Positions 1 to 64,000 of a DNA stretch of 64,000 nt are shown here, piece by piece. Source of the DNA: a virus (taxonomy: Duplodnaviria > Caudoviricetes); the IMG/VR virus record IMGVR_UViG_3300032038_000035, positions 38,743-102,742 of that record. One strand, given 5' to 3'. The translations under genes were made by a program, and so were the position numbers. The notes below the pieces were generated by a model that worked only from the letters and a program-made list of their open reading frames with translations, had not been told where the DNA came from and ran no database searches. Position 1 is the first letter of the stretch. Each line of letters begins with the position of its first letter.

Positions 1-1
1 A

Positions 2-358
2 CCCGATGAAGGTAAAGAAGCTTCTAATGATATAAGATTGGAAAAAGGTTTATGCTTTGCAATCATATATCTAAAAGAATTAAATGAAATTACTCTTATG
101 GGTAAAGCTAGGACTGCATTACCTATCAAAAGTGGTAATGACTTGGCAGTATTTATTCGTAATTCAGATTGGGTTATGGAAAAGAGAGGTCAATATAAAT
201 CTGAAGAAGATTTCAAAAAGTTATTGCAGAAATTCTCTCCTGTAAAGATATCCAATGCTCAGACTAAAAGAGCAGGAATGTCGACATCTAAAACTATAAC
301 TACTACTAAGACTACTTCTAGTAGAACCAGATCTGTTGCAAAGACAAAAAAAATATAA
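2..358 (+). CDS. hypothetical protein, 5'-truncated by window, basic Thr/Lys-rich C-terminus
   Basis: Frame is open from position 2 to the TAA ending at 358. Confidence 0.7.
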   Translation, partial: PDEGKEASNDIRLEKGLCFAIIYLKELNEITLMGKARTALPIKSGNDLAVFIRNSDWVMEKRGQYKSEEDFKKLLQKFSPVKISNAQTKRAGMSTSKTITTTKTTSSRTRSVAKTKKI

Positions 359-402
359 GCATCGCCAATTATGCTTATATTCCGGTGTGGTGTAACCTAT
401 AA

Positions 403-756
403 TCAGGTTGCACCGCACCATTTGCAGGCATATCCCCCGCGAATCTGTCTCCCGCCACAGCAGGGACAGGTTTCCGTGGTGAATATTATCTGCGGATAAT
501 ATTCACCACTGTCGCGATCGAAATGCATCACAGTGAGACCAATGTCTCGCTGCTGGCAAATCGTCACGACCGCAAGGAGAGCAACCGTCAGCCCTGTGGC
601 GTACAGGGTTAACTGGTCACAATCCTCGGGGAGCTCGCTGCGGACATGCTCAGTGAGCGCATCCACATCGAGGGGATTTACCTGAGTATCGAACAGAAAG
701 TCCGACACATCAGGTATGTCGTGCCTGCCACGACATAATCCATATGTGTATTTCAT
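403..756 (-). CDS. early small protein, Rossmann-like (possibly CARF/SAVED-like) domain plus C-terminal Zn ribbon
   Basis: AGGAGGTG RBS; own early promoter; GRH and LYATGLTVAL...MHFDRDSGEYY motifs; CPCC/CKWC; visibly higher GC than flanks. Confidence 0.6.
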   Translation of the reverse strand: MKYTYGLCRGRHDIPDVSDFLFDTQVNPLDVDALTEHVRSELPEDCDQLTLYATGLTVALLAVVTICQQRDIGLTVMHFDRDSGEYYPQIIFTTETCPCCGGRQIRGGYACKWCGAT

Positions 757-806
757 TATATCACCTCCTTATGATAAACAACACACATTTTGTTGATTGG
801 CACTAT

Positions 807-839
807 TAGAATATACATATCATTATAAAATAAATACGG
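807..839 (-). promoter_or_regulatory. putative early promoter CCGTA-N19-TATATTCTA
   Basis: Same bipartite motif with the same 19-nt spacer occurs at 5 sites upstream of minus-strand early units. Confidence 0.75.
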
Positions 840-852
840 ATAACAATATGAT

Positions 853-955
853 AGTAATTCATTATACAAATCCTTATACGGACCTAAAGTTTTATACCTC
901 CAAGTTGAAACTGGTAGAAAATTATTCCATGGGTATTCCCCATGGAATAATTTTC
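853..955 (+). ncRNA. candidate late sRNA with anti-SD motif TTTTATACCTCC
   Basis: AACA-ATATGA-TA at 842-853; no ORF; strong terminator hairpin 917-955. Confidence 0.4.
917..955. terminator. bidirectional intrinsic terminator
   Basis: GAAAATTATTCCATGGG / CCCATGGAATAATTTTC inverted repeat. Confidence 0.85.
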
Positions 956-988
956 CGCTTATTTATATAAAACGTATAACAAGTGCAT

Positions 989-1100
989 AACTGACATTCA
1001 AAGTCAGCTCCTATTATTAACCTCTTTTTATTAAACGGAAACTTTCATTTTCACGGGAAAATAGCTCTATAGGTCCCCCTACCCTATAGAGTTATTTTTC
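989..1100 (+). ncRNA. candidate late sRNA with 5' hairpin and CU-rich tract
   Basis: AACA-AGTGCA-TA at 978-989; CTGAC/GTCAG hairpin; CTCCT and ACCTCTTTT tracts; terminator about 1059-1100. Confidence 0.35.
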
Positions 1101-1101
1101 G

Positions 1102-2403
1102 TCATGGCTTTATTGGATATCCTGTATATGATTTGCCATCGAGATTTTGTTGATCTGTTATGGTAATATCATTTACTGCAAATGAATTGTAATATGCAAG
1201 ATTCAGATATATTATAAATCTATATGTCTTATATGGATCTGAATTCTTTATAGTCATTTCATACTTAGACCAATTTATAGAGAAGTCAGATTCATATTGA
1301 CCATCTATATCATTCATAATAAGTCTAGGTATTAACAATAGTTGCATATCATTACCATTGGCAATGATATCATCCATCACGCGTTTTAAATCTGGCTGTA
1401 TACACTCAGTTATACTAAATGTATCATCTTTACCTTCATTTTGTTTTTCTGTCTTTATTATATTAGAGCTATATAGAGTATAACCTTTCTCTATATATGG
1501 ATGATCTTGGAATGTTCTCTCAAATGTATAGAGAGGTATATATGCACTATGATCCGATTCATGGAGACATAACTTAAACTTCTTATGAAGAACTCGTCTA
1601 GTCCAAGCGTAATAAGATGCGATTGCATTAAATTCACATTCTATTTTAAATGTAACATTCGTAGGGTCTTCTACCATATTTTTTCTATTCATCTCTTCAC
1701 ATTGAAGATCCGTGAATGTTGAAATAATATTCTGCGGATAAAATAAAAAGTACTCATCACTACTAGTAGAATTTCTCATCTTATATGATATAGGATAAGA
1801 TGCATGTTTTCTAAGGTAATGAGTCAATACAGGAATATTATTCTTATCATCTAAATTAATACCAACTATTTCGCATACATGATATAATAATGCTTTGGGT
1901 ATTAAAGATTCCAAAGATGTTGGTATATAGATAGATCTATTAAACACAAATGTATTATTGAGATAATTATATAAATCTAATGCTGAATAATATGTATTAC
2001 ACTGAATCGCTATATCAAAATTTACTTTATATCTATTTATTTTGAATGCCAGTCCAATGCCAAAATCATTATCGGAAAAGAAATTCTGTTTAGCAAGACC
2101 AGAACCACCTGCTACACCCTGATGCCATACTATCTGAGTGCCTGATAAAAAATCATTGGATGTTGCGTTATCATAATTCTCTACAGTGGGTCTTATTATC
2201 ATAAACGGTCTTTGCTTAGCTTCAAATTCTTTATGTGTATGTAAATAACGTCTAAAGTATCTAAATGACGTTTTTGTACTTATGCTTCTATCTGCAAGAA
2301 AACCTTTTGGCATATTATGCTCCAGATACATCTGTACTGCATTAATAACATTGCCATACATTTGTGATATAGAGGTAGCTGCAACGAAGAAAATTTTATC
2401 CAT
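1102..2403 (-). CDS. putative virion structural protein (tail completion-like)
   Basis: 433 aa; GGAGG RBS; late-type GACA-AATCGT-TA upstream; jumbo phage structural context. Confidence 0.5.
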   Translation of the reverse strand: MDKIFFVAATSISQMYGNVINAVQMYLEHNMPKGFLADRSISTKTSFRYFRRYLHTHKEFEAKQRPFMIIRPTVENYDNATSNDFLSGTQIVWHQGVAGGSGLAKQNFFSDNDFGIGLAFKINRYKVNFDIAIQCNTYYSALDLYNYLNNTFVFNRSIYIPTSLESLIPKALLYHVCEIVGINLDDKNNIPVLTHYLRKHASYPISYKMRNSTSSDEYFLFYPQNIISTFTDLQCEEMNRKNMVEDPTNVTFKIECEFNAIASYYAWTRRVLHKKFKLCLHESDHSAYIPLYTFERTFQDHPYIEKGYTLYSSNIIKTEKQNEGKDDTFSITECIQPDLKRVMDDIIANGNDMQLLLIPRLIMNDIDGQYESDFSINWSKYEMTIKNSDPYKTYRFIIYLNLAYYNSFAVNDITITDQQNLDGKSYTGYPIKP

Positions 2404-2452
2404 TTCATTAACACCTCCTAGAATTAACGATTTGTCCTAGTGCATATCGTGA

Positions 2453-2464
2453 GAACATTATATT
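2453..2464 (+). promoter_or_regulatory. late-type promoter AACA-N6-TA
   Basis: AACA-TTATAT-TA matches the AR9 nvRNAP consensus. Confidence 0.6.
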
Positions 2465-2483
2465 AAACTCTTCATATCTGGGG

Positions 2484-2951
2484 GTGTTTAAATTGAAGCC
2501 GATATCTAATGACATCTATAATTTATTAGACTTTTTATTTAAGTTTGCCTTAGTGTATATTCCTTGTGTAATGGGTGCTATTTGTGGCATCTATTTTAAA
2601 ACCGAGTATTTACATAAGAATGAAAGGTCTAGAAAGCGTAGGCATGTATTATCCGATTTCGGATTATCATTATCTTCGTCTATAGTTCCGTCTTTAGTAA
2701 TACTCATAGCTGAATACTTATTACCAGAGCATACTCAAACTAATCACATCTTAAAATATGGTATCGCTATGTTATTTGGCTTTATTGGCTCTGATAGAAT
2801 AACTGAATATCTTATGAATATGACAAACTTATTTAAAGTCTTAAAAGCAATTTCAGAAGGAATGAGTGGACTATCAAAATTATCAGGTGAGGCAGAAACA
2901 TTGAATAGTATGAAATCTCTAACGGATGACACAAAAAAGAAGAATGAGTAG
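2484..2951 (+). CDS. putative holin-like membrane protein
   Basis: Three hydrophobic segments, charged C-terminus, late promoter. Confidence 0.5.
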   Translation: MFKLKPISNDIYNLLDFLFKFALVYIPCVMGAICGIYFKTEYLHKNERSRKRRHVLSDFGLSLSSSIVPSLVILIAEYLLPEHTQTNHILKYGIAMLFGFIGSDRITEYLMNMTNLFKVLKAISEGMSGLSKLSGEAETLNSMKSLTDDTKKKNE

Positions 2952-2979
2952 AGATGATTTATTCTCATCTCTACTCATT

Positions 2980-3348
2980 TTAAAGTACTTTTGAATTTAA
3001 ATAGACCATAATCTCTCTAGATATCATACTATAGAAACTATCTTTATTAAGATAGACAGTAACATGATTTACTAAGTCATCTGATAAAGATCCTAACACA
3101 TTTCTAAAAATGTCTTTATAGTAGTTATCGTAAGATGCCTTGTCTATTATCTTACCACCATTATCAAATATATTACGTTCATATAGAGAAATTTCATTAT
3201 TGATAATAATGTTAATTATCTCAAATAGTTCTTCAAATGTTAATTCGTCTAATTTACTTTTTTGTGGTTTATTAAGTATATTTGGTAATAGTGATGCAAT
3301 TAATAATAGTAATATGCATAATAAGCATATGAAGATTGCTACTAACAT
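2980..3348 (-). CDS. membrane-anchored hypothetical protein
   Basis: N-terminal TM helix, AAGGTGA RBS. Confidence 0.6.
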   Translation of the reverse strand: MLVAIFICLLCILLLLIASLLPNILNKPQKSKLDELTFEELFEIINIIINNEISLYERNIFDNGGKIIDKASYDNYYKDIFRNVLGSLSDDLVNHVTVYLNKDSFYSMISREIMVYLNSKVL

Positions 3349-3484
3349 TTAAATCACCTTCCTAGTTATTTTAATGTGATAGAGCGCAAAAAAATAAGCA
3401 GTGCCCGTGCAAAGGCACTGCTTATTTTGATGTAAGAAAGGAGAATTATTGATGATTACAATATAGTTCAAGCGAATTATATTT

Positions 3485-4066
3485 TTACTCTTCTTTGTTA
3501 GCTACCTTTTCATCATCTGATTTGTTTCCGCCATCCATTATTCTATGGTGATCAACTTCGTCATTGTACTCAGGTATTTGCTTATTTACATCAAAGTCGA
3601 AATCATATACCTTAAAGCCGCCACTGTGTCCTATAAATTCTTCATCATCGTCATATATTTCTTCATAATGTCTGGTGTCATCAAGTTTGATTTCGCCATT
3701 CACTATTATATAGTGCTCCGCGAAACCCATGCCGTCTTCTTCAGTATACAGCTCGATAGAGATATCATCTTTAATCTCTAATAATGAGGGCAATGTTTTA
3801 CGCTCATCGATTATTTCCTTGAGTAGTGCATCTATGTCTTCACCAAAAAGTTCATCAAATGGCGCATACTTGTCAAGATTCCATGCAGAAGTTGCTGACC
3901 ATTTACACCAACCGTGCGCATATACATCTCTCATTTTACCATCTTCAGAAAGTTTCTCATCGTGCACTTCGTATTCAGGTGAATGACTCTTGATGAACTC
4001 CATAGCTTTATTAACGGTTTCGGTTTTACCATATGCACGTAAATCATAATAACAACAGTTAGCCAT
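3485..4066 (-). CDS. hypothetical protein, YubB/DUF1281-like ferredoxin-fold
   Basis: MANCC start after GGGAGG; W-S and ELYTEEDGMGF motifs. Confidence 0.45.
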   Translation of the reverse strand: MANCCYYDLRAYGKTETVNKAMEFIKSHSPEYEVHDEKLSEDGKMRDVYAHGWCKWSATSAWNLDKYAPFDELFGEDIDALLKEIIDERKTLPSLLEIKDDISIELYTEEDGMGFAEHYIIVNGEIKLDDTRHYEEIYDDDEEFIGHSGGFKVYDFDFDVNKQIPEYNDEVDHHRIMDGGNKSDDEKVANKEE

Positions 4067-4083
4067 ATCGATTCCTCCCAAAA

Positions 4084-22470: not shown

Positions 22471-22694
22471 ATATGTATCCCCCTCTTTCTGTTTATTAAT
22501 CTTATTATATATAAACCATTATATCTTTAATATAAATCCGGATTTATAATAACTCTAAGGGGAATTTGAAAATTAGGGACCTTTGGTCCCTAATTTTCTG
22601 TAATAGTGCAGGTTAAGTTTAGAGTATTTGATAGTATTGACATAAACTGGTATTTTAAAGTATTGGTAGGTTAGACTTTGTATTATATATAGAA

Positions 22695-22978
22695 GAAAAA
22701 ATAAGTGGGAGACCCTTAGGCCTCTCATGTGTTGGTCTTATTGTCTTTTATGTATCTCTTAATTCTCTCTATTTTCTGGTCGTTTTTGGTCTCGGATGTG
22801 TTTGTGGGGCGGACCGCCCCCCTGAAAATTCGCTCCGCTCATTCTTTTTTTCTCCGACCTTCGGTCTCTAATAGGAAGCCCTACCTGACAATACGCTTCA
22901 GTTTCCCTAAACTCCGGATTTAGCCACTACCCCTTAAGGTCTGTTATCCTCACGTCTAGTCCCCCTGGCAACATCATT
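22695..22978 (-). ncRNA. candidate G-rich late ncRNA or origin-associated transcript
   Basis: AAAATAT-AACA-ATAACG-TA promoter at 22989-22978; G runs; terminal hairpin GAGGCC-TAAG-GGTCTC followed by a T tract; no ORF. Confidence 0.45.
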
Positions 22979-23029
22979 ACGTTATTGTTATATTTTTTTT
23001 TAAAAAAAAATAATTTATATTTTTATCTT

Positions 23030-23508
23030 TTTGGATAGAGATAAATCTATAAATTGGATATAGCAATATGTAACAATGCAACGTCTTGTTGAGTAATATC
23101 TAGAGAATTTAAAGTGAGCTCATGTAATGAAAGACATACAAATGAACGTATTAGATACGGGTGAGCTTAGATCGAAATCAATAAGCTCTTATGCTACAAT
23201 CATTACGGTGAACGAACTTTCAAGCTAAGCCTGACTCATAATCATGAGATTAACCTTTCTTCAGTGAACGTCTAGAAACCCCCTCCCTGGTGGTTAGCGT
23301 AGTGAGTTCAGGGGTAATCGAGTCTTTCGACAAGCCTACTTTTCATTCATAGTTTTACACCCTATTCGCATAATGTACTTTCGTACTTCTGTTTTTCACA
23401 CTATCATATGTACACCTTTTGAGCATACAAAGGACATGACTGTTCCATTCCCGCGGTCATATCCAGACAATCACCTTGCCATGTACTCGCGTACCTAGAT
23501 TCCGGTTT
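23030..23508 (-). ncRNA. candidate large structured late ncRNA (about 470 nt)
   Basis: AAAATAT-AACA-TATAGT-TA promoter at 23519-23508; hairpins GTAC-GCGA-GTAC, GTAC-GAAA-GTAC, GTC-GAAA-GAC; raised GC; no ORF of 60 aa or more. Confidence 0.6.
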
Positions 23509-23576
23509 AACTATATGTTATATTTTTATTTAAAAAAATATAGTGAATACCAAAATTTGGTATTCACTATATTATG

Positions 23577-23954: not shown

Positions 23955-24017
23955 AATGAATCACTCCTTTCTTATATAGATATAATATACATTCCAAAAA
24001 AATATCATATTAGAGCA

Positions 24018-24215
24018 AAAAATAAATCATCAATAGATGATTTATTTTATTCATGGCTATTGCCATAGTATTCCTCCTTCCGGAGCTGTAGACGTCAGTC
24101 ACTTCGCCTCCACTATTGCAGAGACCACGCTCTCACGAGCAGGCTGACATCCATATAGGCATTACATACATCACGTGGTGTATGTAACGTTTTCCCTATA
24201 TGTCTACGTTTATTA
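24018..24215 (-). ncRNA. candidate structured early RNA (about 190 nt)
   Basis: Early promoter 24223-24255; nested stems; GCTC-GTGA-GAGC GNRA hairpin; terminator 24018-24048. Confidence 0.5.
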
Positions 24216-24222
24216 TTACTTA

Positions 24223-24255
24223 TAGAATATATAAAGCAACATACGTAATTTACGG
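24223..24255 (-). promoter_or_regulatory. putative early promoter CCGTA-N19-TATATTCTA
   Basis: Exact motif copy. Confidence 0.75.
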
Positions 24256-24267
24256 GGGGTACGTACA

Positions 24268-24301
24268 AAAAATATAGCCACCCGAAGGTGGCTATATTTT
24301 A
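24268..24301. terminator. intrinsic terminator
   Basis: ATATAGCCACC-CGAA-GGTGGCTATAT; the core recurs near 50985. Confidence 0.85.
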
Positions 24302-24308
24302 ATCGGAA

Positions 24309-24788
24309 TCAGTTATTGGGTTCAACCGAAGTGGGCATGTTAGGTAACGGGTATTCAAATTCTAGAGTCTGTGGATTGATCTGCGGATTTGGACGACTAT
24401 TTTCGAGATACCGTATAAGTTTGGACACTATATGCTTTCTTTTAATTGTTGATATCGAGCTAGTATCCACTCTCAAATATATATTGGATTCCAACTTATA
24501 AGCAGCATCCAATATTAATTCCGGTGGCACATGCCCAGATTCTGCAAGGCTAAGCAGAATCTGTTTTGCTGCAGCTGCTTCATCAACATATTCCATCACT
24601 TCACGATCTTCAAAGTATCTGAAGAAGTTGTTTATCTTATCTACTATAAGATAAACAACCGCGTCGTGTATCTCTTCTTGTCTTGCTGCTTCTTCTATAG
24701 ATTTTTTCTTGTCAAGCGCATCTTGATATATATCCATGTAATCAATTTCGAAATCTTCGTTGATATTATAATACTTATTTTTATTCAT
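24309..24788 (-). CDS. early hypothetical protein
   Basis: GGAGGT RBS. Confidence 0.7.
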   Translation of the reverse strand: MNKNKYYNINEDFEIDYMDIYQDALDKKKSIEEAARQEEIHDAVVYLIVDKINNFFRYFEDREVMEYVDEAAAAKQILLSLAESGHVPPELILDAAYKLESNIYLRVDTSSISTIKRKHIVSKLIRYLENSRPNPQINPQTLEFEYPLPNMPTSVEPNN

Positions 24789-25687: not shown

Positions 25688-26104
25688 CTATGGGGTTAAA
25701 TTCCCCAAATCGGATCTATTCCTTCTCCATCGCCCCAAATTGAACTTATTCTTTCTTCTTCGTCTTGCCTTTTTCTCGTCGGCAGCTTCGTTCATACGAG
25801 CGAGATCAGCAGATCTTTCGGAGTTCAATTCTTTCTTAGCAATATAATCGATATTGCCAAGCAAGACTGGGAAGCCCTTAAATATACCTGAATTATATAT
25901 CGTATTTATCGCGATATGTATTTCAGTTGCGCTCAGACCTTCATCTTTAACATCATTAAATATCGCTTCCTCAACATCATCATTCGGAAAATAATCTAAC
26001 AACGGAATACCTTTGTCGATAACAGCCTTTAATATTTTTTCAGAATTGGGATTGATAGGATTACCCGCATCAACGATCTGCTTCATTCTGTCTAATCTAC
26101 TCAT
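25688..26104 (-). CDS. early protein, tandem paralog of 26107-26415, basic C-terminal tail
   Basis: Shared AIFND...GL..EIH.A motif. Confidence 0.7.
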   Translation of the reverse strand: MSRLDRMKQIVDAGNPINPNSEKILKAVIDKGIPLLDYFPNDDVEEAIFNDVKDEGLSATEIHIAINTIYNSGIFKGFPVLLGNIDYIAKKELNSERSADLARMNEAADEKKARRRRKNKFNLGRWRRNRSDLGNLTP

Positions 26105-26415: not shown

Positions 26416-26599
26416 ATTTACCTCCTAATAGGTTAAAGCGGGTTTATTATCACATATATAGAATATATAATACAAATTAATGTTAATTTTACGTATCGCT
26501 CGTAATTTACGACTCATATGACGTTTTACATTACAATTTATCACTTTAACATAGTATTAAATCATATATTTTTTATAAATATGATTGGAGGTTTTCAAG

Positions 26600-29500
26600 A
26601 TGCAAGATTGTAAATTTAGTGTCAAGTGTACGGTTAGAAAGCGTAATGGAACGCAAGATTCGTTCGACATTAACAAAATTCTATCCGGCATCAATAAAAG
26701 TGCTCAACGATCGGAACCGAAATTCTCTAAGCTATCATCCGCAGAACAAGAGAGATTTCTAGCCATCCTTGAGCAATTATTTTTCACCTATGAGATAAAA
26801 GATGGAGATGTTCTTGAGACATCTTTTATTGAAAAAATAGTTGGTACAGCTCTTGGTAAATTTGACACCAACATCCAGAAGACGTATTCAGAATACAATC
26901 TGTGGAAATCTAAGTATGCAGATTCGTTCTGTAAAATAAAATCCGAAGTAGAAGAAGTATACCTCCGTGGAGATCGCTCCAATGCAAATACAAATTCAGC
27001 ATACGTTTCCACCAAACGTTGTATTGGATATAATATATTCAATAAAGAAATGTACCAGATGAATTTTCTCACTCCACAAGAACTCCGTGAATGTCGTGAT
27101 GGATTCATCTATATACATGATATGGTAGCTCGTAATGATACATTTAATTGTATGCTATTCCGTATGGCAGACGTAATGACAAACGGATTCGAAATGGGAG
27201 ACATGTGGTACACAGAACCCAAATCCCTCGACGTCGCTTTTGATGTAATGCTAGCCATTACCAAAACCGCAGCAGCACAGCAATATGGCGGATTTACGAT
27301 TCCTCAAATAGATAAGCTTCTCTCTAAATACGCTGAGAAAAGTTACAAATCTTATCTCAAAGAGTATATAGACTTTGCTCCTCCTGACACACCCGTAACA
27401 CTTGCAGCATCTCTAGCAGATATTTATGCGATGCATAAAGTCCAAAGAGACATGGAGCAAGGTTTCCAAGCAATGGAATATGACTTAAATACAATAGGTT
27501 CCTCTAGAGGAGATTATCCATTTGTGACTATAACGTTTGGATTAGATACTTCTAAATTTGGTAAGCTTGTATCTTCAACTGCATTAAAGGTAAGAGCAAA
27601 TGGAGAAGGTAAGCCTGGTTATAAGAAGATAGTAGCATTTCCTAAGTTAGTTTTTCTATATGATGAAGAACTTCATGGAGAAGATAGACCTTCTTATGAT
27701 ATATATCAAGATGCAGTAAGATGTCAAGCTAAAGCAATGTATCCGGACATGCTTTCTCTATCAGGCGAAGGATACGTGTCATCCGTCTATCAGAAATACA
27801 AAACACCTATTTCTCCTATGGGATGTCACCCCCCACTGGAGGTACTCACCTATAAACTCAATAAACAACTTTTTGTTGAGTCTATCGCTCGTCTATATGG
27901 ACGTATACGAGAGTGCATGGTTGAGAAAATTCAACCCGGTTTAGACGAACGCTATACGTACTTCGATACATCCTATATGGACCTTGAAATATACGATACT
28001 CTTCATGGTTTTGTGAAGATGAAAAAGATTATCAAAAATTATAATGACAACGATTGGTATCAAGTTGTATTAGACAATGGACGCTATATACAGGTAACTC
28101 ACGATCACCCGTTTGAAACAGAAAACCGTGGCGTGGTTCATGCATGTGATCTTATACCGGGTGAAGACAAAATTCGAGTTAATTATGAGGGCTACTCAGA
28201 AGAGACTGAAACATGCCCAGATGATCTGGCATGGTTCCTCGGATTAATGTTATGCGACGGATGTTACCAGTGTGGCGTAGTCGTATCGATAGCGGCAGAG
28301 GGCGAAGACGAAATCCAAAATATGTTCCTTGAGGTTGTTGATAGATACTACAAGCTTCCCACTAGAGTTAAACTCCAAGAAAGAGGTCCCAAGGGCACAT
28401 ATAAAGATCTCAAGATTCTCAGTGACGGCTCGGGTGCTTTGGAGAAACTCAAGAGAGACTTCGCCGATCTCTTCGGCGGCATAAACAAAAAAGATCGTCA
28501 GATCCCACCAGAGGTATTTAGGTGGAATAGATCTGCCAAGTTGGCATTCTTAGGTGGTATGATAGATGCTGATGGATATGTAGTACGAGCAGGTTCTTAT
28601 GCAAATACTGGATATACACATCTCGGCAGTACCAATAGAGAATTAGCTATACAGCAATTACTGCTTATTCAATCTCTCGGAATGCCTGCCAAAGTATATG
28701 CTAATCATTACAAGAAAGGATCTAGCAAGATACGACATTCTGTGGAATTTTATGCAACAAATGAGCTTGGCGCGTATATAACATGCGCAAAGAAGTATCA
28801 AGCAATTCCAGAAGAGCCAGGTGCGTTTACAGATACTAATCAAGTCCGTACTGTAGCTAAAGTTATGAAGATTGATGATCCTGATGAGCATTACAGCTAT
28901 GATGTAGAGACAGAATCCGGACACTTTGAAGTATCAGGAATCTATTCTCATAACTGTAGAGCATTCCTCAGTCCTTGGTTTGAAAGAGGCGGAATGACTC
29001 CAGCAGATGAAAATGACGTTCCTGTATTCGAAGGTCGAGCTAATATAGGAGCTATATCTCTTAATCTACCTATGATATATCAGAAGTCTGTAGAAGAACA
29101 CAAAGACTTCTATGAGGTATTGGATTTCTATTTAGAGATGATAAGAAATCTACATCAACGTACATATGAATATTTAGGAAAGATGAAAGCCGGATGTAAT
29201 CCTATGGTATTCTGTCAGGGTGGAGCATATGGTGGACATCTAAAACCGGATGATGTGATTGCTCCTATAATTAAATCTTGGACTGCATCATTTGGTATTA
29301 CTGCATTGAATGAATTGCAAGTACTGTATAATGGAAAGACCATAAATGAAGATGGTGAATTTGCATTAGAAGTATTAACATACATCAACAAGCAGGTTGA
29401 GAAATTCAAGAAGTTGGACGGACATTTATATGCTATATATTCTACTCCTGCTGAGGCATTATGTGGTACTCAGGTAAAACAATTCCGGAAGAAGTATGGC

Positions 29501-29914
29501 ATTATAAAAGGCGTATCTGATAAAGAGTATTTTACCAATAGTACTCACTGTCCTGTATATGCGCATATAACTCCATTCGAGAAACAAGATTCTGAGAAAC
29601 GATTCTGGGATTTGTCTAATGGTGGTCATATACAATACGTGAGATATAACGATGATAAAAACTTGGACGCATTTGATACTACGAATAGACGTGGTATGAA
29701 GATGGGCTTCTATCAAGGACACAATCTGGATAAATGCTATTGTGAAGATTGTGGATACGAACAGTTAGACATGAAGATCTGTCCTAAATGCGGATCAAAA
29801 AATATAACTGAAATAAATAGATTGTGTGGTTATCTTGGCTATAGCAAGATAAAAGGAGACACTAGAATGAACGATGCTAAATTAGCTGAGATTGCTGATA
29901 GAGTATCGATGTAA
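26600..29914 (+). CDS. nrdD: anaerobic (class III) ribonucleoside-triphosphate reductase with intein
   Basis: N-terminal ATP cone (VRKRNG); IYIHD; PMG/CR catalytic loop; YSTPAE; Zn site CEDC/CPKC; glycyl-radical RLCGYLG. Confidence 0.95.
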   Translation: MQDCKFSVKCTVRKRNGTQDSFDINKILSGINKSAQRSEPKFSKLSSAEQERFLAILEQLFFTYEIKDGDVLETSFIEKIVGTALGKFDTNIQKTYSEYNLWKSKYADSFCKIKSEVEEVYLRGDRSNANTNSAYVSTKRCIGYNIFNKEMYQMNFLTPQELRECRDGFIYIHDMVARNDTFNCMLFRMADVMTNGFEMGDMWYTEPKSLDVAFDVMLAITKTAAAQQYGGFTIPQIDKLLSKYAEKSYKSYLKEYIDFAPPDTPVTLAASLADIYAMHKVQRDMEQGFQAMEYDLNTIGSSRGDYPFVTITFGLDTSKFGKLVSSTALKVRANGEGKPGYKKIVAFPKLVFLYDEELHGEDRPSYDIYQDAVRCQAKAMYPDMLSLSGEGYVSSVYQKYKTPISPMGCHPPLEVLTYKLNKQLFVESIARLYGRIRECMVEKIQPGLDERYTYFDTSYMDLEIYDTLHGFVKMKKIIKNYNDNDWYQVVLDNGRYIQVTHDHPFETENRGVVHACDLIPGEDKIRVNYEGYSEETETCPDDLAWFLGLMLCDGCYQCGVVVSIAAEGEDEIQNMFLEVVDRYYKLPTRVKLQERGPKGTYKDLKILSDGSGALEKLKRDFADLFGGINKKDRQIPPEVFRWNRSAKLAFLGGMIDADGYVVRAGSYANTGYTHLGSTNRELAIQQLLLIQSLGMPAKVYANHYKKGSSKIRHSVEFYATNELGAYITCAKKYQAIPEEPGAFTDTNQVRTVAKVMKIDDPDEHYSYDVETESGHFEVSGIYSHNCRAFLSPWFERGGMTPADENDVPVFEGRANIGAISLNLPMIYQKSVEEHKDFYEVLDFYLEMIRNLHQRTYEYLGKMKAGCNPMVFCQGGAYGGHLKPDDVIAPIIKSWTASFGITALNELQVLYNGKTINEDGEFALEVLTYINKQVEKFKKLDGHLYAIYSTPAEALCGTQVKQFRKKYGIIKGVSDKEYFTNSTHCPVYAHITPFEKQDSEKRFWDLSNGGHIQYVRYNDDKNLDAFDTTNRRGMKMGFYQGHNLDKCYCEDCGYEQLDMKICPKCGSKNITEINRLCGYLGYSKIKGDTRMNDAKLAEIADRVSM
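27824..28954 (+). mobile_element. intein (377 aa) with LAGLIDADG homing endonuclease
   Basis: Starts at C after PMG; block B VTHDHPF; LGLMLCDG and FLGGMIDADG; ends YDVET...SHN followed by the extein Cys. Confidence 0.92.
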
Positions 29915-42378: not shown

Positions 42379-44127
42379 TTAATCGGATTCAATGATTCCA
42401 CATTGTGCAACTTCTACAGAAGAATCAGGTTGCCCATCTTCTCTAATAGGTTGCTTATCTGATAAAGTAAATAGTTCGTTTATAATAGCTATCTCATCTT
42501 TACGAGGCAGCATTCCTTTATTTACTTTACCTGTTCTTGTATCTATGTACAGATACACTGATGAAAGCTGTCTGAAGATATACTCTATAGATGCTCCAAA
42601 AGGTCTATATATGTTAATTTGATCTCCGTCAAAGTCAGCATTCATGTTAGTTAATACTCTTGTATTAAGTGTAACAGTCTTGTCATCTATATTTGGTTTG
42701 ATGTATGCAATATTGAATGCTCCATGAGAACCCATATTGATGCAAGGATTTCGTGATATGATTACACTAAGACTATGATCTCCTTTATGCTCTTCAAGAA
42801 GTATTGTCATTATCTTATATACAGTTTCGTCGAATACATTAGATGCAACTTCCAATACATGATTAGCATCTTCTACAGAAGTATCATATATCTTGATATA
42901 CATATTCATGATTTCAAATCTGAATAACTTTAAGAAAGTAAGATATGGTACTTCAACTTCTTCTGCTCTAAGAGGTCTAGCACCCGGAACTATAATAGAT
43001 CTTCCGGAGAAATCATGTCTACCACCTATGAGCTTAGACTGTATTATACCTTTCTTACCTTCTATTACCTGATATTCTTCATTGAACACACTAGCTGCAT
43101 TCTCTTGAATCTTCTCAAGTAATATATCTATCTTTTCACTTTCTGTCTGATTGAGTCCAGATGAATCTGATACTACATCAGGCCTCTGTGATATTGTACT
43201 CTTTATGTCATTAGCACATCTGATTATAGCCTGAAAACATGTATTGATTTTCATTCTATAATTCTTGATGTCTTTCTCACCGGGCATTTCAGATCTCATT
43301 GCTGAAGAATATATAGGAATAGCACCGCAAAACATTTTGTACTGATCCTCATATAACTCTTCATATAAGTCATAGATCTTACCCGCATTACGTTTGCCCT
43401 TTTTCTTTTTGCACCATTCAAGTACATCGCTTATATGCTTAGATAACCAAGTCATTCCTTTACCGACATATGGAAAGTTATACTTAGTTACCATATCATA
43501 TTCTTCTGGAGAATATTCTTCACCAAATTTCTTATAGCGAACTTTGATAATCATATCCAGATATGATTTGCCATCTATAGTACCAAGGAGCTTTTTAAGT
43601 TTCTCATAGTATATAGGAGTAAGTATCTTATATCCATGAAAAACTACCCAACCAAACTTTTTCAAGTCTGTCTCGTTCTGAGTAATAAGTGTACCACATT
43701 CAGGACACACTGTATATCCATCAGCGTACATAGATCCAATCATCTTACCACAAGCACAAGAGAATCTCGAATTATATTCCTCATTGTTATTGTAGTCTGA
43801 TCCAAAGAATGGTGATTGTAAGCCTGATTCATTCTTCTCATTCTTTTTCTTAAATGACTCAGGATTATCGATAATCACAGCTTTACCATTAGCTAAGTCG
43901 TTCTTAAACTCTTCATCGAAGTCGTATGTAAAAACTCTTACGCTGTGTATAGTTGTATTGAATTTGATCCCTTTAGGGTCAAGGACTAATAGATCATTTA
44001 TTAGCGCAGCTGTTTGATCTATTGCCATCTGATCAAGCTTGCGTCTTTCTCTTAAAGCGTCCATGAGTTCTGTACGAGTCATCTCAACTGGCTCGTCCAA
44101 TTCTGTAACGTTAGTTTCGTCTATCAT
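42379..44127 (-). CDS. phage multisubunit RNA polymerase beta-prime N-terminal subunit (catalytic)
   Basis: Zn finger CACG...CPEC; GKKGIIQSKLIGGRHDFSGRSII; RNP; NADFDGD. Confidence 0.93.
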   Translation of the reverse strand: MIDETNVTELDEPVEMTRTELMDALRERRKLDQMAIDQTAALINDLLVLDPKGIKFNTTIHSVRVFTYDFDEEFKNDLANGKAVIIDNPESFKKKNEKNESGLQSPFFGSDYNNNEEYNSRFSCACGKMIGSMYADGYTVCPECGTLITQNETDLKKFGWVVFHGYKILTPIYYEKLKKLLGTIDGKSYLDMIIKVRYKKFGEEYSPEEYDMVTKYNFPYVGKGMTWLSKHISDVLEWCKKKKGKRNAGKIYDLYEELYEDQYKMFCGAIPIYSSAMRSEMPGEKDIKNYRMKINTCFQAIIRCANDIKSTISQRPDVVSDSSGLNQTESEKIDILLEKIQENAASVFNEEYQVIEGKKGIIQSKLIGGRHDFSGRSIIVPGARPLRAEEVEVPYLTFLKLFRFEIMNMYIKIYDTSVEDANHVLEVASNVFDETVYKIMTILLEEHKGDHSLSVIISRNPCINMGSHGAFNIAYIKPNIDDKTVTLNTRVLTNMNADFDGDQINIYRPFGASIEYIFRQLSSVYLYIDTRTGKVNKGMLPRKDEIAIINELFTLSDKQPIREDGQPDSSVEVAQCGIIESD

Positions 44128-44228
44128 ATCGATACCTCCCAATAAAATAGCTTATACTTTAGTGTTAGCTGCATCTTTAAAATATATAAAAGAAAATATG
44201 CTCTGGAAATTTTCCAGAGCATATCACA

Positions 44229-45306: not shown

Positions 45307-46503
45307 TTATCTTATAAGCGTATTGATATTAACATCGTCCATCTGAATTGCAGATTTGTGGAACTTTTTCATACCACCATCAACTGCAGCATTGGGAATA
45401 GTTGCGAATGTAATTCCCATATTCTTTATGCCTGTAATATATGGGAATTGACCAACACATATATTACATACATGCTCAGAAATACAGCACATCGGGGATC
45501 TAAGTTTAACAAACTTATTTACGTACTTGGATTTATTCTCCTGTGATAACATTACAGGTTTTCCATTTTCCATTACATACTGGAATTCGTATCTGCCAAA
45601 GTTCTTATCAGTTAAGTATACATTGATATATGACTTGGTCCCACAATCTGTTCCTTCGTCATCTACATATACGGATTGGAACGCTGCATAGTATTGCTTT
45701 GTAATATAACCAGAGTCTGCTGTAGCACAAGACTTAGGATATGCTGCAGATATAAGCATATTACCAGCTTTAGGAAGATCTTCCTTATTGAAACCTTCTA
45801 TGAAGTTCGTATTTACCGGTTCCATCTGAGATGTAGCAGGATTGTATACAGGACCTATCATAATAGATATATTCTTATACTGGTCACCTATCTCACCACG
45901 AGCACCAGAGTCATAAAGACCAATACCAGGATTGCTTCTTAACTTATCATTAGCTTCAGCTGTTATTTGTCTCTCAAAATCTGCATAATCTGCCGTAGTT
46001 GCATCGGGATTATTCTTTATAAAGTCATCTCTCTTCTTAATGAGATCTTTTCTAGGATTAAGGAGATCTGCATTATAAGACGAGTTATATATTATGGCAC
46101 CTTTAAGGGAATAAAACTCAATGGCTTTCTCCCATTTCCATGCAGCTTCTGTGCTAAGAGTACCATACTTAACAGCTTCTGATACTAAACTAAATAGTTT
46201 TCCAACTCCACCTTTATTCAAAGGTATATTCCAATAGTGGTCAGGAATTATATCTTTAATATAATTCTCTATACAGATCTTATTGAAAACTATTCTGCCA
46301 AGAGTTGTATCAACGTCAGTTGTATTAATATATTCCTTAGCCTTCAGCTTAACTCTATCAGTTACATTATATCTAGGCTCATTTATCTTCTTAGTCTTTG
46401 GGTCAGCGGTTCTTCCAAATAAATGTGTTTGCATCTTAATGCCTAATTGCTCAGGTTTTAAAGACAAAAAATATTTTTTAGTCACTTCATTTACATAAGC
46501 CAT
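45307..46503 (-). CDS. phage RNA polymerase beta-prime C-terminal subunit (probably virion RNAP)
   Basis: TTLGR; SGARG; TADSGYITK bridge helix; DCGT; RSPMCC..CNIC; MKKFH trigger loop; late AACA-TTTTGA-TA upstream. Confidence 0.88.
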   Translation of the reverse strand: MAYVNEVTKKYFLSLKPEQLGIKMQTHLFGRTADPKTKKINEPRYNVTDRVKLKAKEYINTTDVDTTLGRIVFNKICIENYIKDIIPDHYWNIPLNKGGVGKLFSLVSEAVKYGTLSTEAAWKWEKAIEFYSLKGAIIYNSSYNADLLNPRKDLIKKRDDFIKNNPDATTADYADFERQITAEANDKLRSNPGIGLYDSGARGEIGDQYKNISIMIGPVYNPATSQMEPVNTNFIEGFNKEDLPKAGNMLISAAYPKSCATADSGYITKQYYAAFQSVYVDDEGTDCGTKSYINVYLTDKNFGRYEFQYVMENGKPVMLSQENKSKYVNKFVKLRSPMCCISEHVCNICVGQFPYITGIKNMGITFATIPNAAVDGGMKKFHKSAIQMDDVNINTLIR

Positions 46504-46592
46504 ATTAATCATCTCGCTTTCGTGATATGCCTAAGTTATCAAAATGTTGGTACTGGAACTCCTTTATAACAATTTATAGAGGCGGTGTTTTT

Positions 46593-63705: not shown

Positions 63706-64000
63706 ATGGCATTTTGTAGTTTTAAACTTGAGGATTTCACAAGGAGAATCAGTAGTGACAAATTCGAACTTGGTAGAGAGTATGCGATGACACTAGCTCC
63801 AGGATTTAACATGGATAGTCGTATAAGCTGGTTCAGGGCATTTGAGTTTACCAATAAAGGTAATAAGATCGCATCAGATGATGCAAAAATGTTTTCTAAT
63901 CCAGAATTTGGATCCTCACAGGCTATATGTAAACAGTCGTATGACATAGTGCATAAGGAAAAGTTTACTATAGTATATTTTAAATTCGTACCGAAAAATA
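63706..64000 (+). CDS. hypothetical protein, 3'-truncated by window
   Basis: AGGAGGTATAAT-ATG; frame open to the end of the window. Confidence 0.7.
   Translation, partial: MAFCSFKLEDFTRRISSDKFELGREYAMTLAPGFNMDSRISWFRAFEFTNKGNKIASDDAKMFSNPEFGSSQAICKQSYDIVHKEKFTIVYFKFVPKN

Follow-up and report, generated by a model that had tools for sequence, protein, structure and literature searches.

Two tandem promoter-to-terminator units with exposed C/U-rich boxes: candidate late small RNAs of an uncultured AR9-like jumbo phage

The stretch of DNA analyzed here (the window, 64,000 nt) comprises bases 38743-102742 of a 102,742-bp IMG/VR record with a G+C content of 34% and an estimated completeness of 41%. 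Among its genes are pieces of a multisubunit RNA polymerase, a β′ piece at 42379-44142 (PF00623 match) and a β piece at 45307-46512 (phrog_2962 match); in relatives, a large gene neighboring the locus described below (the neighbor of L015) has a weak Rpb2_6 match. Proteins encoded in the window bear merely a remote likeness to those of Listeria and Bacillus jumbo phages, and the close relatives are all metagenome assemblies, with contigs of up to 242 kb. Contigs from two cattle-gut-type runs are 90-99% alike to the phage, at low depth. A DNA search with positions 1-4000 of the window against 50,697 phage records returned no match, and scans of viral contigs with single proteins and with exact 22-mers found nothing. 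A profile scan of viral contigs recovered relatives at 27-29% only, and a scan of metagenome contigs recovered one locus, L019, which has no unit of the kind described here. On the strength of its own multisubunit RNA polymerase pieces, its remote jumbo-phage likeness, and its metagenome-only relatives, the source is an uncultured AR9-like, two-RNA-polymerase jumbo phage of the cattle gut. The window also carries, at 26585-29914, an anaerobic ribonucleotide reductase gene that is split by an intein with a LAGLIDADG domain.

The locus of interest is the gap between a 257-aa gene on the plus strand and a 433-aa gene on the minus strand, at the very start of the window. Its features and those of its surroundings are as follows (RBS, ribosome-binding site; SD, Shine-Dalgarno).

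2-358, plus strand: 3′ part of the 257-aa gene, which converges on the gap; its orthologs adjoin the gap in all relatives
361-822, minus strand: inserted GC-rich cassette (context only), with a GC content of 50-60% versus about 30% in the flanks
375-420: cassette hairpin of 15 bp, which takes in the 3′ end of the 117-aa frame
403-756, minus strand: 117-aa zinc-ribbon gene with a C-terminal CxxC...CxxC motif
761-770, minus strand: strong RBS, part of the cassette
~801-822, minus strand: early-type promoter of the cassette, with the early consensus; like sites occur elsewhere in the phage
842-853, plus strand: P1, late-promoter-like AACA-ATATGA-TA, an exact motif; predicted start at the A at 853
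853-960, plus strand: unit 1, predicted RNA of ~105-110 nt; fold of -32.4 kcal/mol, z of -5.2; no conserved ORF
888-912, plus strand: small stem-loop (predicted fold) with the anti-SD box in its loop and upper stem; CCUCC at 897-901
917-955, plus strand: hairpin 1, 17 pairs with A-/U-rich flanks; terminator-like in a plus-strand scan
978-989, plus strand: P2, late-promoter-like AACA-AGTGCA-TA, an exact motif; predicted start at the A at 989
989-1100, plus strand: unit 2, predicted RNA of ~110 nt; fold of -28.6 kcal/mol, z of -5.25
991-1007, plus strand: 5′ hairpin of unit 2 (predicted fold)
1008-1012 (CUCCU) and 1019-1029 (CCUCU tract), plus strand: single-stranded C/U boxes of unit 2, predicted 0.85 unpaired
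1056-1100, both strands: hairpin 2, 18 pairs with U runs on both sides; abuts the stop codon of the 433-aa gene (1102-1104)
1102-2403, minus strand: 433-aa gene, phrog_21946, function unknown; its terminator is hairpin 2

The gap at 842-1100 contains two AACA-N6-TA sites. Downstream of each come about 60 bases that are free of ORFs and include an unpaired C/U-rich box, and a strong hairpin follows. The initial annotation had described two promoter-to-terminator units in this gap, and their parts were recovered by our analysis. A motif scan placed both AACA-N6-TA words at 842-853 and 978-989, as claimed; the terminator proposed at 917-955 is a real hairpin of 17 pairs, and the second, proposed at about 1059-1100, was found to span 1056-1100. 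The 13-mer assigned to 890-902 is present, as are the 5′ hairpin, the CUCCU box, and the CCUCU tract of unit 2. The minus-strand GGAGG opposite the box (897-901) has, as had been stated, no ATG, GTG, or TTG at RBS distance.

Both units fold with z scores of about -5.2 relative to shuffles, a value owed mostly to the hairpins. In unit 1, the box is predicted to be 0.79 unpaired, versus 0.42 for the RNA overall; in unit 2, the box of the window is degenerate (CCUCU). The same tendency is predicted in the relatives, where the C/U box is mostly unpaired in 10 of the 11 box-bearing units, and in two RNAs of phage AR9 that are discussed below (0.6-1.0 versus 0.4-0.5 for the whole RNA); the box is usually flanked by a 5′ hairpin and the terminator. 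A 40-codon plus-strand frame in unit 1 has no SD sequence, and neither L003 nor L022 retains it. A small-ORF reading of the units was ruled out, no small ORF being shared among lineages. Searches of Rfam gave no match for the window at the gathering score, only chance-level matches for positions 300-1300 at E values of up to 10, and no match to the C4 family. A check for cis-antisense overlap indicated that both units stop before the stop codon at 1102: unit 1 overlaps nothing, and unit 2 overlaps only the shared terminator of the 433-aa message, although read-through is possible.

In phage AR9, dRNA-seq defined the late promoter as AACA-N6-TA/G, with transcription starting at the final base, and the early promoter as an AT-rich word followed by N6 and then G (Lavysh et al. 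2017, PMC5312081). The 12-nt late motif alone is not above chance in our phage, with 38 copies in the window versus 68.8 expected. This window-wide depletion looks like selection against stray promoters. At 15-80 nt upstream of start codons, AACA-N6-T[AG] was found 14 times on the coding strand and 3 times on the opposite strand, with 3.7 expected (P ~4e-5), and the head-tail joining gene is among the genes so preceded, at a distance of 41 nt. Enrichment ahead of genes means that the word behaves like a late promoter, and the AR9 scheme applies. The early-type word recurs before other genes of the phage. By analogy with AR9, transcription from P1 and P2 would be late.

Two further noncoding stretches were noted on the minus strand. 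The first, at 22480-23570, is 1.1 kb long, ORF poor, and G+C richer, and it contains late-promoter-like sites with the first A at 23519 and 22989, each just past a T-rich terminator; it may give rise to further late noncoding RNAs. The two late-promoter stretches in 22695-23508 had no Rfam match and did not fold better than shuffles. The second, at 24000-24290, has an early-type word at about 24231 and then some 150 nt rich in G+C, beyond which lie a strong RBS, a tiny frame, and a terminator; it could be a leader or a micro-gene.

Hairpin 1 is predicted to terminate unit 1 and, in the cassette-free relatives, also the upstream 257-aa gene; its U tract is modest, and the hairpin is weaker in L003. 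Hairpin 2 is predicted to be a bidirectional terminator common to unit 2 on the plus strand and the 433-aa gene on the minus strand. Because it touches the stop codon of the 433-aa gene, it is also, and perhaps first, the terminator of that gene; a hairpin is found directly after this stop in every relative.

Comparison of the stems among lineages bears on the question of which strand is selected. In hairpin 1, both sides are changed at four pairs, one pair runs G-C, G.U, A-U, and both wobble columns are G.U on the plus strand only. In hairpin 2, 9 of the 18 pairs are changed on both sides, and the one-sided changes yield G.U on the plus strand. The terminator stems have six columns with G.U on the plus strand and none with C.A, these covariation counts being small and drawn from a handful of lineages that are partly non-independent. 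The plus-strand fold is favored by 2.5-7.3 kcal/mol in 8 of 14 hairpins, the minus-strand fold in 1 of 14; for hairpin 1, the plus fold is favored in L010, L012, and L003. Taken together, the compensatory changes, the G.U pairs confined to the plus strand, and the fold energies argue that the plus-strand RNA is the selected form, hairpin 2 included.

The cassette at 361-822 is present or absent between near-identical phages (L010 versus L012 and a contig of run X1). In L012, with a 433-aa protein 99% identical to that of the window, precisely 361-822 is missing, while 823-1100 is almost unchanged and both units are kept, and the X1 contig joins 360 to 823, which is the same empty site. Since L012 keeps the units without the cassette, they are independent of the 117-aa gene, and readings of the units as a leader, stabilizer, or promoter region of that gene are out. 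Placement of the box within the 117-aa leader is out as well, since the early-type promoter at ~801-822 sits downstream of the box. The 117-aa protein had no match in Pfam or PHROG and few homologs, some of them in Bacillota assemblies. The cassette hairpin at 375-420 has two G.U pairs on the plus strand only and is probably a plus-strand terminator brought in by the cassette for the 257-aa gene.

The spot between the orthologs of the 433-aa and 257-aa genes is an insertion hot spot. Across L003-L026, its cargo ranges from nothing to one to three small-RNA-like units, a 186-188-aa gene, 104-, 136-, or 142-aa genes, and an IS605-type TnpB (L004/L005); in L008 (82%) and L015-17 (54%), the two convergent genes have a single hairpin between them. 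The 186-188-aa cargo gene is a paralog, with 36-39% identity, of the window gene at 3485-4081. When the cargo proteins of relatives (136, 178, 186, and 188 aa) were compared with the gap by tblastn, nothing credible was found in 823-1100. We found no support for the box being the leftover RBS of a deleted minus-strand gene, an origin that the initial annotation had itself raised as an objection: there is no detectable remnant and no conserved ORF, and in L012 and L022 the minus strand downstream of the box holds only the antisense of the convergent gene.

One to three units are found at the same spot and in the same orientation in the window group, L003, L022, L004, L009, and L025/L026. With each gap counted once, the independent homologous gaps contain 7 motif copies in 1,013 nt, versus 0.5-0.9 expected. 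The spacers between AACA and TA vary; AACA and TA themselves are kept, as is the box, UAUACCUCC or a variant of it. L010 and L012 retain P1. Both units are present in L003 (86%), where P1 is shifted by indels and has a different spacer and P2 aligns, with AACA and TA kept and five of the six spacer bases changed. Sites equivalent to P2 are present in L004, L009, L022, and L025/L026. In L022 (82%), a single unit occupies the space between the convergent genes and shares the 10-nt core around CCUCC, and L025/L026 (76%) has one unit with a UUCUCCUAC box. L004 and L009 (~80%) have three units of unrelated sequence in the same layout, with boxes of the ACCACCUUUCU or CUCC type. The box homologous to that of unit 2 is a perfect CCUCC in L003 and of the ACCACCUUUCU type in L004 and L009.

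The box region is conserved beyond its surroundings. Unit 1 as a whole shows only 65% identity between the window and L003, yet the block at 890-915 is a perfect 26-nt run, with 0.0007 such runs expected. The 10-nt core of the box does not vary among the window group, L003, and L022, and variants of it occur in three more lineages. No unit is present in L008 and L015-17, and none was seen in L006, L013, and L019 as far as the gaps could be read; given that several relatives lack any unit, the element is dispensable. Read on the minus strand, the loci of L004 (5467-5590) and L009 (5507-5648) contain a third late-promoter unit whose box is CUCCU and whose terminator is strong; its start falls within the early-promoter region of the 186/188-aa gene, from which the unit is directed away.

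The 13-mer in unit 1 had been described as complementary to the RBSs of early genes of the phage. Its complement does match the RBS over 10-11 contiguous nt at all six genes that were named, those starting at 24788, 25673, 26104, 32239, and 33009 on the minus strand and at 63706 on the plus strand. The 9-mer GGAGGTATA occurs 9 times in 102 kb, versus ~0.7 expected (an estimate from base composition), and seven of the nine copies are genuine ribosome sites, several of them behind early-type promoters. Because GGAGGTATA is so common at real sites, the complement in unit 1 matches a favored RBS type of the phage. A near-identical start region, consisting of GGAGGTATA, 2-3 bases, and ATG, is reused in at least seven genes, including genes upstream of the window.

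We then asked how far particular messages stand out in the 102 kb of the record, which represent 41% of the genome. The best duplex of unit 1 is with the start region of the gene at 25688-26104; its energy, -29 kcal/mol, is equaled by 2.5% of shuffled RNAs. When GGAGG was held fixed, the flanks matched at 14/21 positions, a value reached by 6.9% of flank shuffles (p = 0.07). The best duplex of unit 2 is at chance, 59% of shuffles equaling it. With unit 1 barely above and unit 2 not above the shuffled controls, the proposal that the named early-gene RBSs are specific targets is not supported. CCUCC in an RNA suffices for pairing with most ribosome sites. What stands of the suggested switch, in which late anti-SD small RNAs would silence early or host translation, is the generic anti-SD reading; a specific early-gene switch is not supported by the near-chance target tests.

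Comparable transcripts can be found in AR9, where the late starts 75478(-), with 3,757 reads, and 115851(+) are listed as "antisense" to g090 and g142, respectively (Lavysh et al. 2017, PMC5312081, Table S3). When the AR9 sequence was checked, both starts proved to lie in spacers, each with AACA-N6-TA, then an unpaired C/U-rich box, and then a hairpin terminator, and with no ORF. The window units share with these RNAs the intergenic AACA-N6-TA promoter, the ORF-less body, the C/U box near the 5′ part, and the terminator; the terminator at 115851 abuts the stop of g142 on the opposite strand, just as that of unit 2 does at the 433-aa gene. The two sets differ in having no detectable sequence similarity and in arrangement, since the AR9 RNAs are single whereas the window units are tandem, and the box of the 75478 RNA lies at the very 5′ end. 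The AR9 starts were mapped experimentally, whereas those in the window are predicted from sequence. In the literature searched, we found no description of such RNAs as regulators, those of AR9 included.

LhrC1-5 of Listeria, the streptococcal csRNAs, and RsaE/RoxS are groups of sibling small RNAs (sRNAs) whose C/U-rich seeds mask SD sites. The window units resemble them in being short and stand-alone, with their own promoter and terminator, in occurring as related copies (some in tandem), and in having unpaired C/U motifs complementary to RBSs. They are unlike them in residing in a lytic jumbo phage, in having a promoter for a phage polymerase rather than for a host sigma factor, and in matching no Rfam family. 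Small phage RNAs that block the RBSs of phage messages are also familiar, namely, c4 of P1/P7, sar of P22, and OOP of lambda, and these have defined targets in cis or near cis and long specific complementarity. In contrast, the window units conserve a generic anti-SD core only, and no target passes the chance test. Relative to the literature, the most likely reading is that the kind, an sRNA with a C/U seed, is already known and that its occurrence in a jumbo phage under a phage-polymerase promoter is new.

The X1 contig comes from an RNA library; it is 203 nt long, of low depth, and joins 254-360 to 823-915. Such contigs show no starts, ends, or strand; the end of this contig at 915 is not a transcript end, and the parts that it leaves uncovered are uninformative. 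It could fit read-through from the 257-aa gene, expression of unit 1, or DNA carry-over.

Our best explanation, to which we give about an even chance, is that the gap holds two sibling, late, protein-less small RNAs with exposed anti-SD boxes. Transcription of the units, its late timing, the pairing of the box with ribosome sites, and any given target are points that we infer. In this model, the non-virion (late) multisubunit RNA polymerase of the phage would read each plus-strand unit from its AR9-type promoter, starting at 853 and 989. Each transcript would be ~105-110 nt long and end at the hairpin at 917-955 or 1056-1100. The C/U-rich anti-SD box would stay unpaired, presented by a stem-loop in unit 1 and by a single-stranded stretch behind the 5′ hairpin in unit 2, and would most likely pair with the purine-rich RBSs of phage or host messages, so that ribosome loading would be blocked late in infection. 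C/U-rich-seed sRNAs of Gram-positive bacteria block ribosome loading by pairing with RBSs. A broader proposal, possible in our view but doubtful, is that gut AR9-like jumbo phages carry a mobile family of late sRNAs, in 0 to 3 copies and made by the phage polymerase, which would mimic the anti-SD tail of the ribosome and compete against ribosomes for messages with strong SD sequences, bringing about a late shut-off of host and/or early phage translation.

The main rival to anti-SD small RNAs is a terminator/antisense-promoter architecture, which we regard as somewhat unlikely. Here the locus would be an ordinary end of convergent genes: the hairpins end the 257-aa and 433-aa genes, the AACA words are late antisense promoters, and the product matters in cis only, be it through overlap of the 3′ end of the 433-aa message via the shared terminator, through transcriptional interference, or through insulation, with no role in trans for the C/U boxes. 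In L012 and L022, the first hairpin after the 257/240-aa gene is indeed the unit hairpin, with P1 14-22 nt past the stop, and the RNA-library contig goes from the 257-aa gene into unit 1; yet both units persist where the cassette parts them from the 257-aa gene, and unit 1 has no message opposite it. In every relative, the 433-aa stop is directly followed by hairpin 2, as this architecture would have it, but the unit-free relatives L008 and L015-17 manage with one shared hairpin, so the extra 240 nt are not required for termination. The near-chance target tests and the classification of comparable AR9 starts as "antisense" by the AR9 authors (PMC5312081) are both consistent with action in cis, which would nevertheless leave unexplained the perfect 26-nt block and the unpaired C/U boxes in six lineages.

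Alternatively, the RNAs could be real and the C/U box could be a protein-binding or decoy site (for ribosomal protein S1, a CsrA-like protein, an RNA chaperone, or a phage factor) or a sponge. The copy number of 0 to 3 is of the kind seen with titrating RNAs, and the conserved block reaches 14 nt past the anti-SD core with no matching target in 102 kb, although an absent target means little when 59% of the genome and the host lie outside the search. We consider this alternative unlikely, given that no such protein has been identified and that the anti-SD-like core is the sole feature common to all lineages. It is very improbable that the minus strand is the functional one, with its GGAGG words acting as RBSs of tiny or decayed genes or as ribosome-binding stabilizers in a read-through message. 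The minus-strand word at 893-901 looks exactly like a genuine GGAGGTATA ribosome site, because seven of the nine copies of that 9-mer are real ones; however, the word is not followed by a start codon at RBS distance in the window group or L003, it is upstream of the early promoter of the 117-aa gene and thus outside that leader, and L012 lacks any downstream minus-strand gene. In L022, an ATG 4 nt past the word does open a frame of 46 codons, but this frame runs antisense into the 240-aa gene; likewise, the minus strand of unit 2 has short frames with SD-like words, whereas minus-strand short frames are wholly different between lineages. The hairpin wobble pairs fit the plus strand only, and a fossil would not remain letter-perfect across 26 nt.

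AR9/phiKZ-type giant phages are noted for the takeover of transcription by their own polymerases, and little is understood of how they time translation. If the small RNAs with anti-SD boxes are real, conserved late RNAs that show the ribosome docking sequence would constitute a simple, RNA-level damping of SD-dependent translation. They would also give a meaning to the unexplained "antisense" late starts of AR9, in a system that can be cultured.
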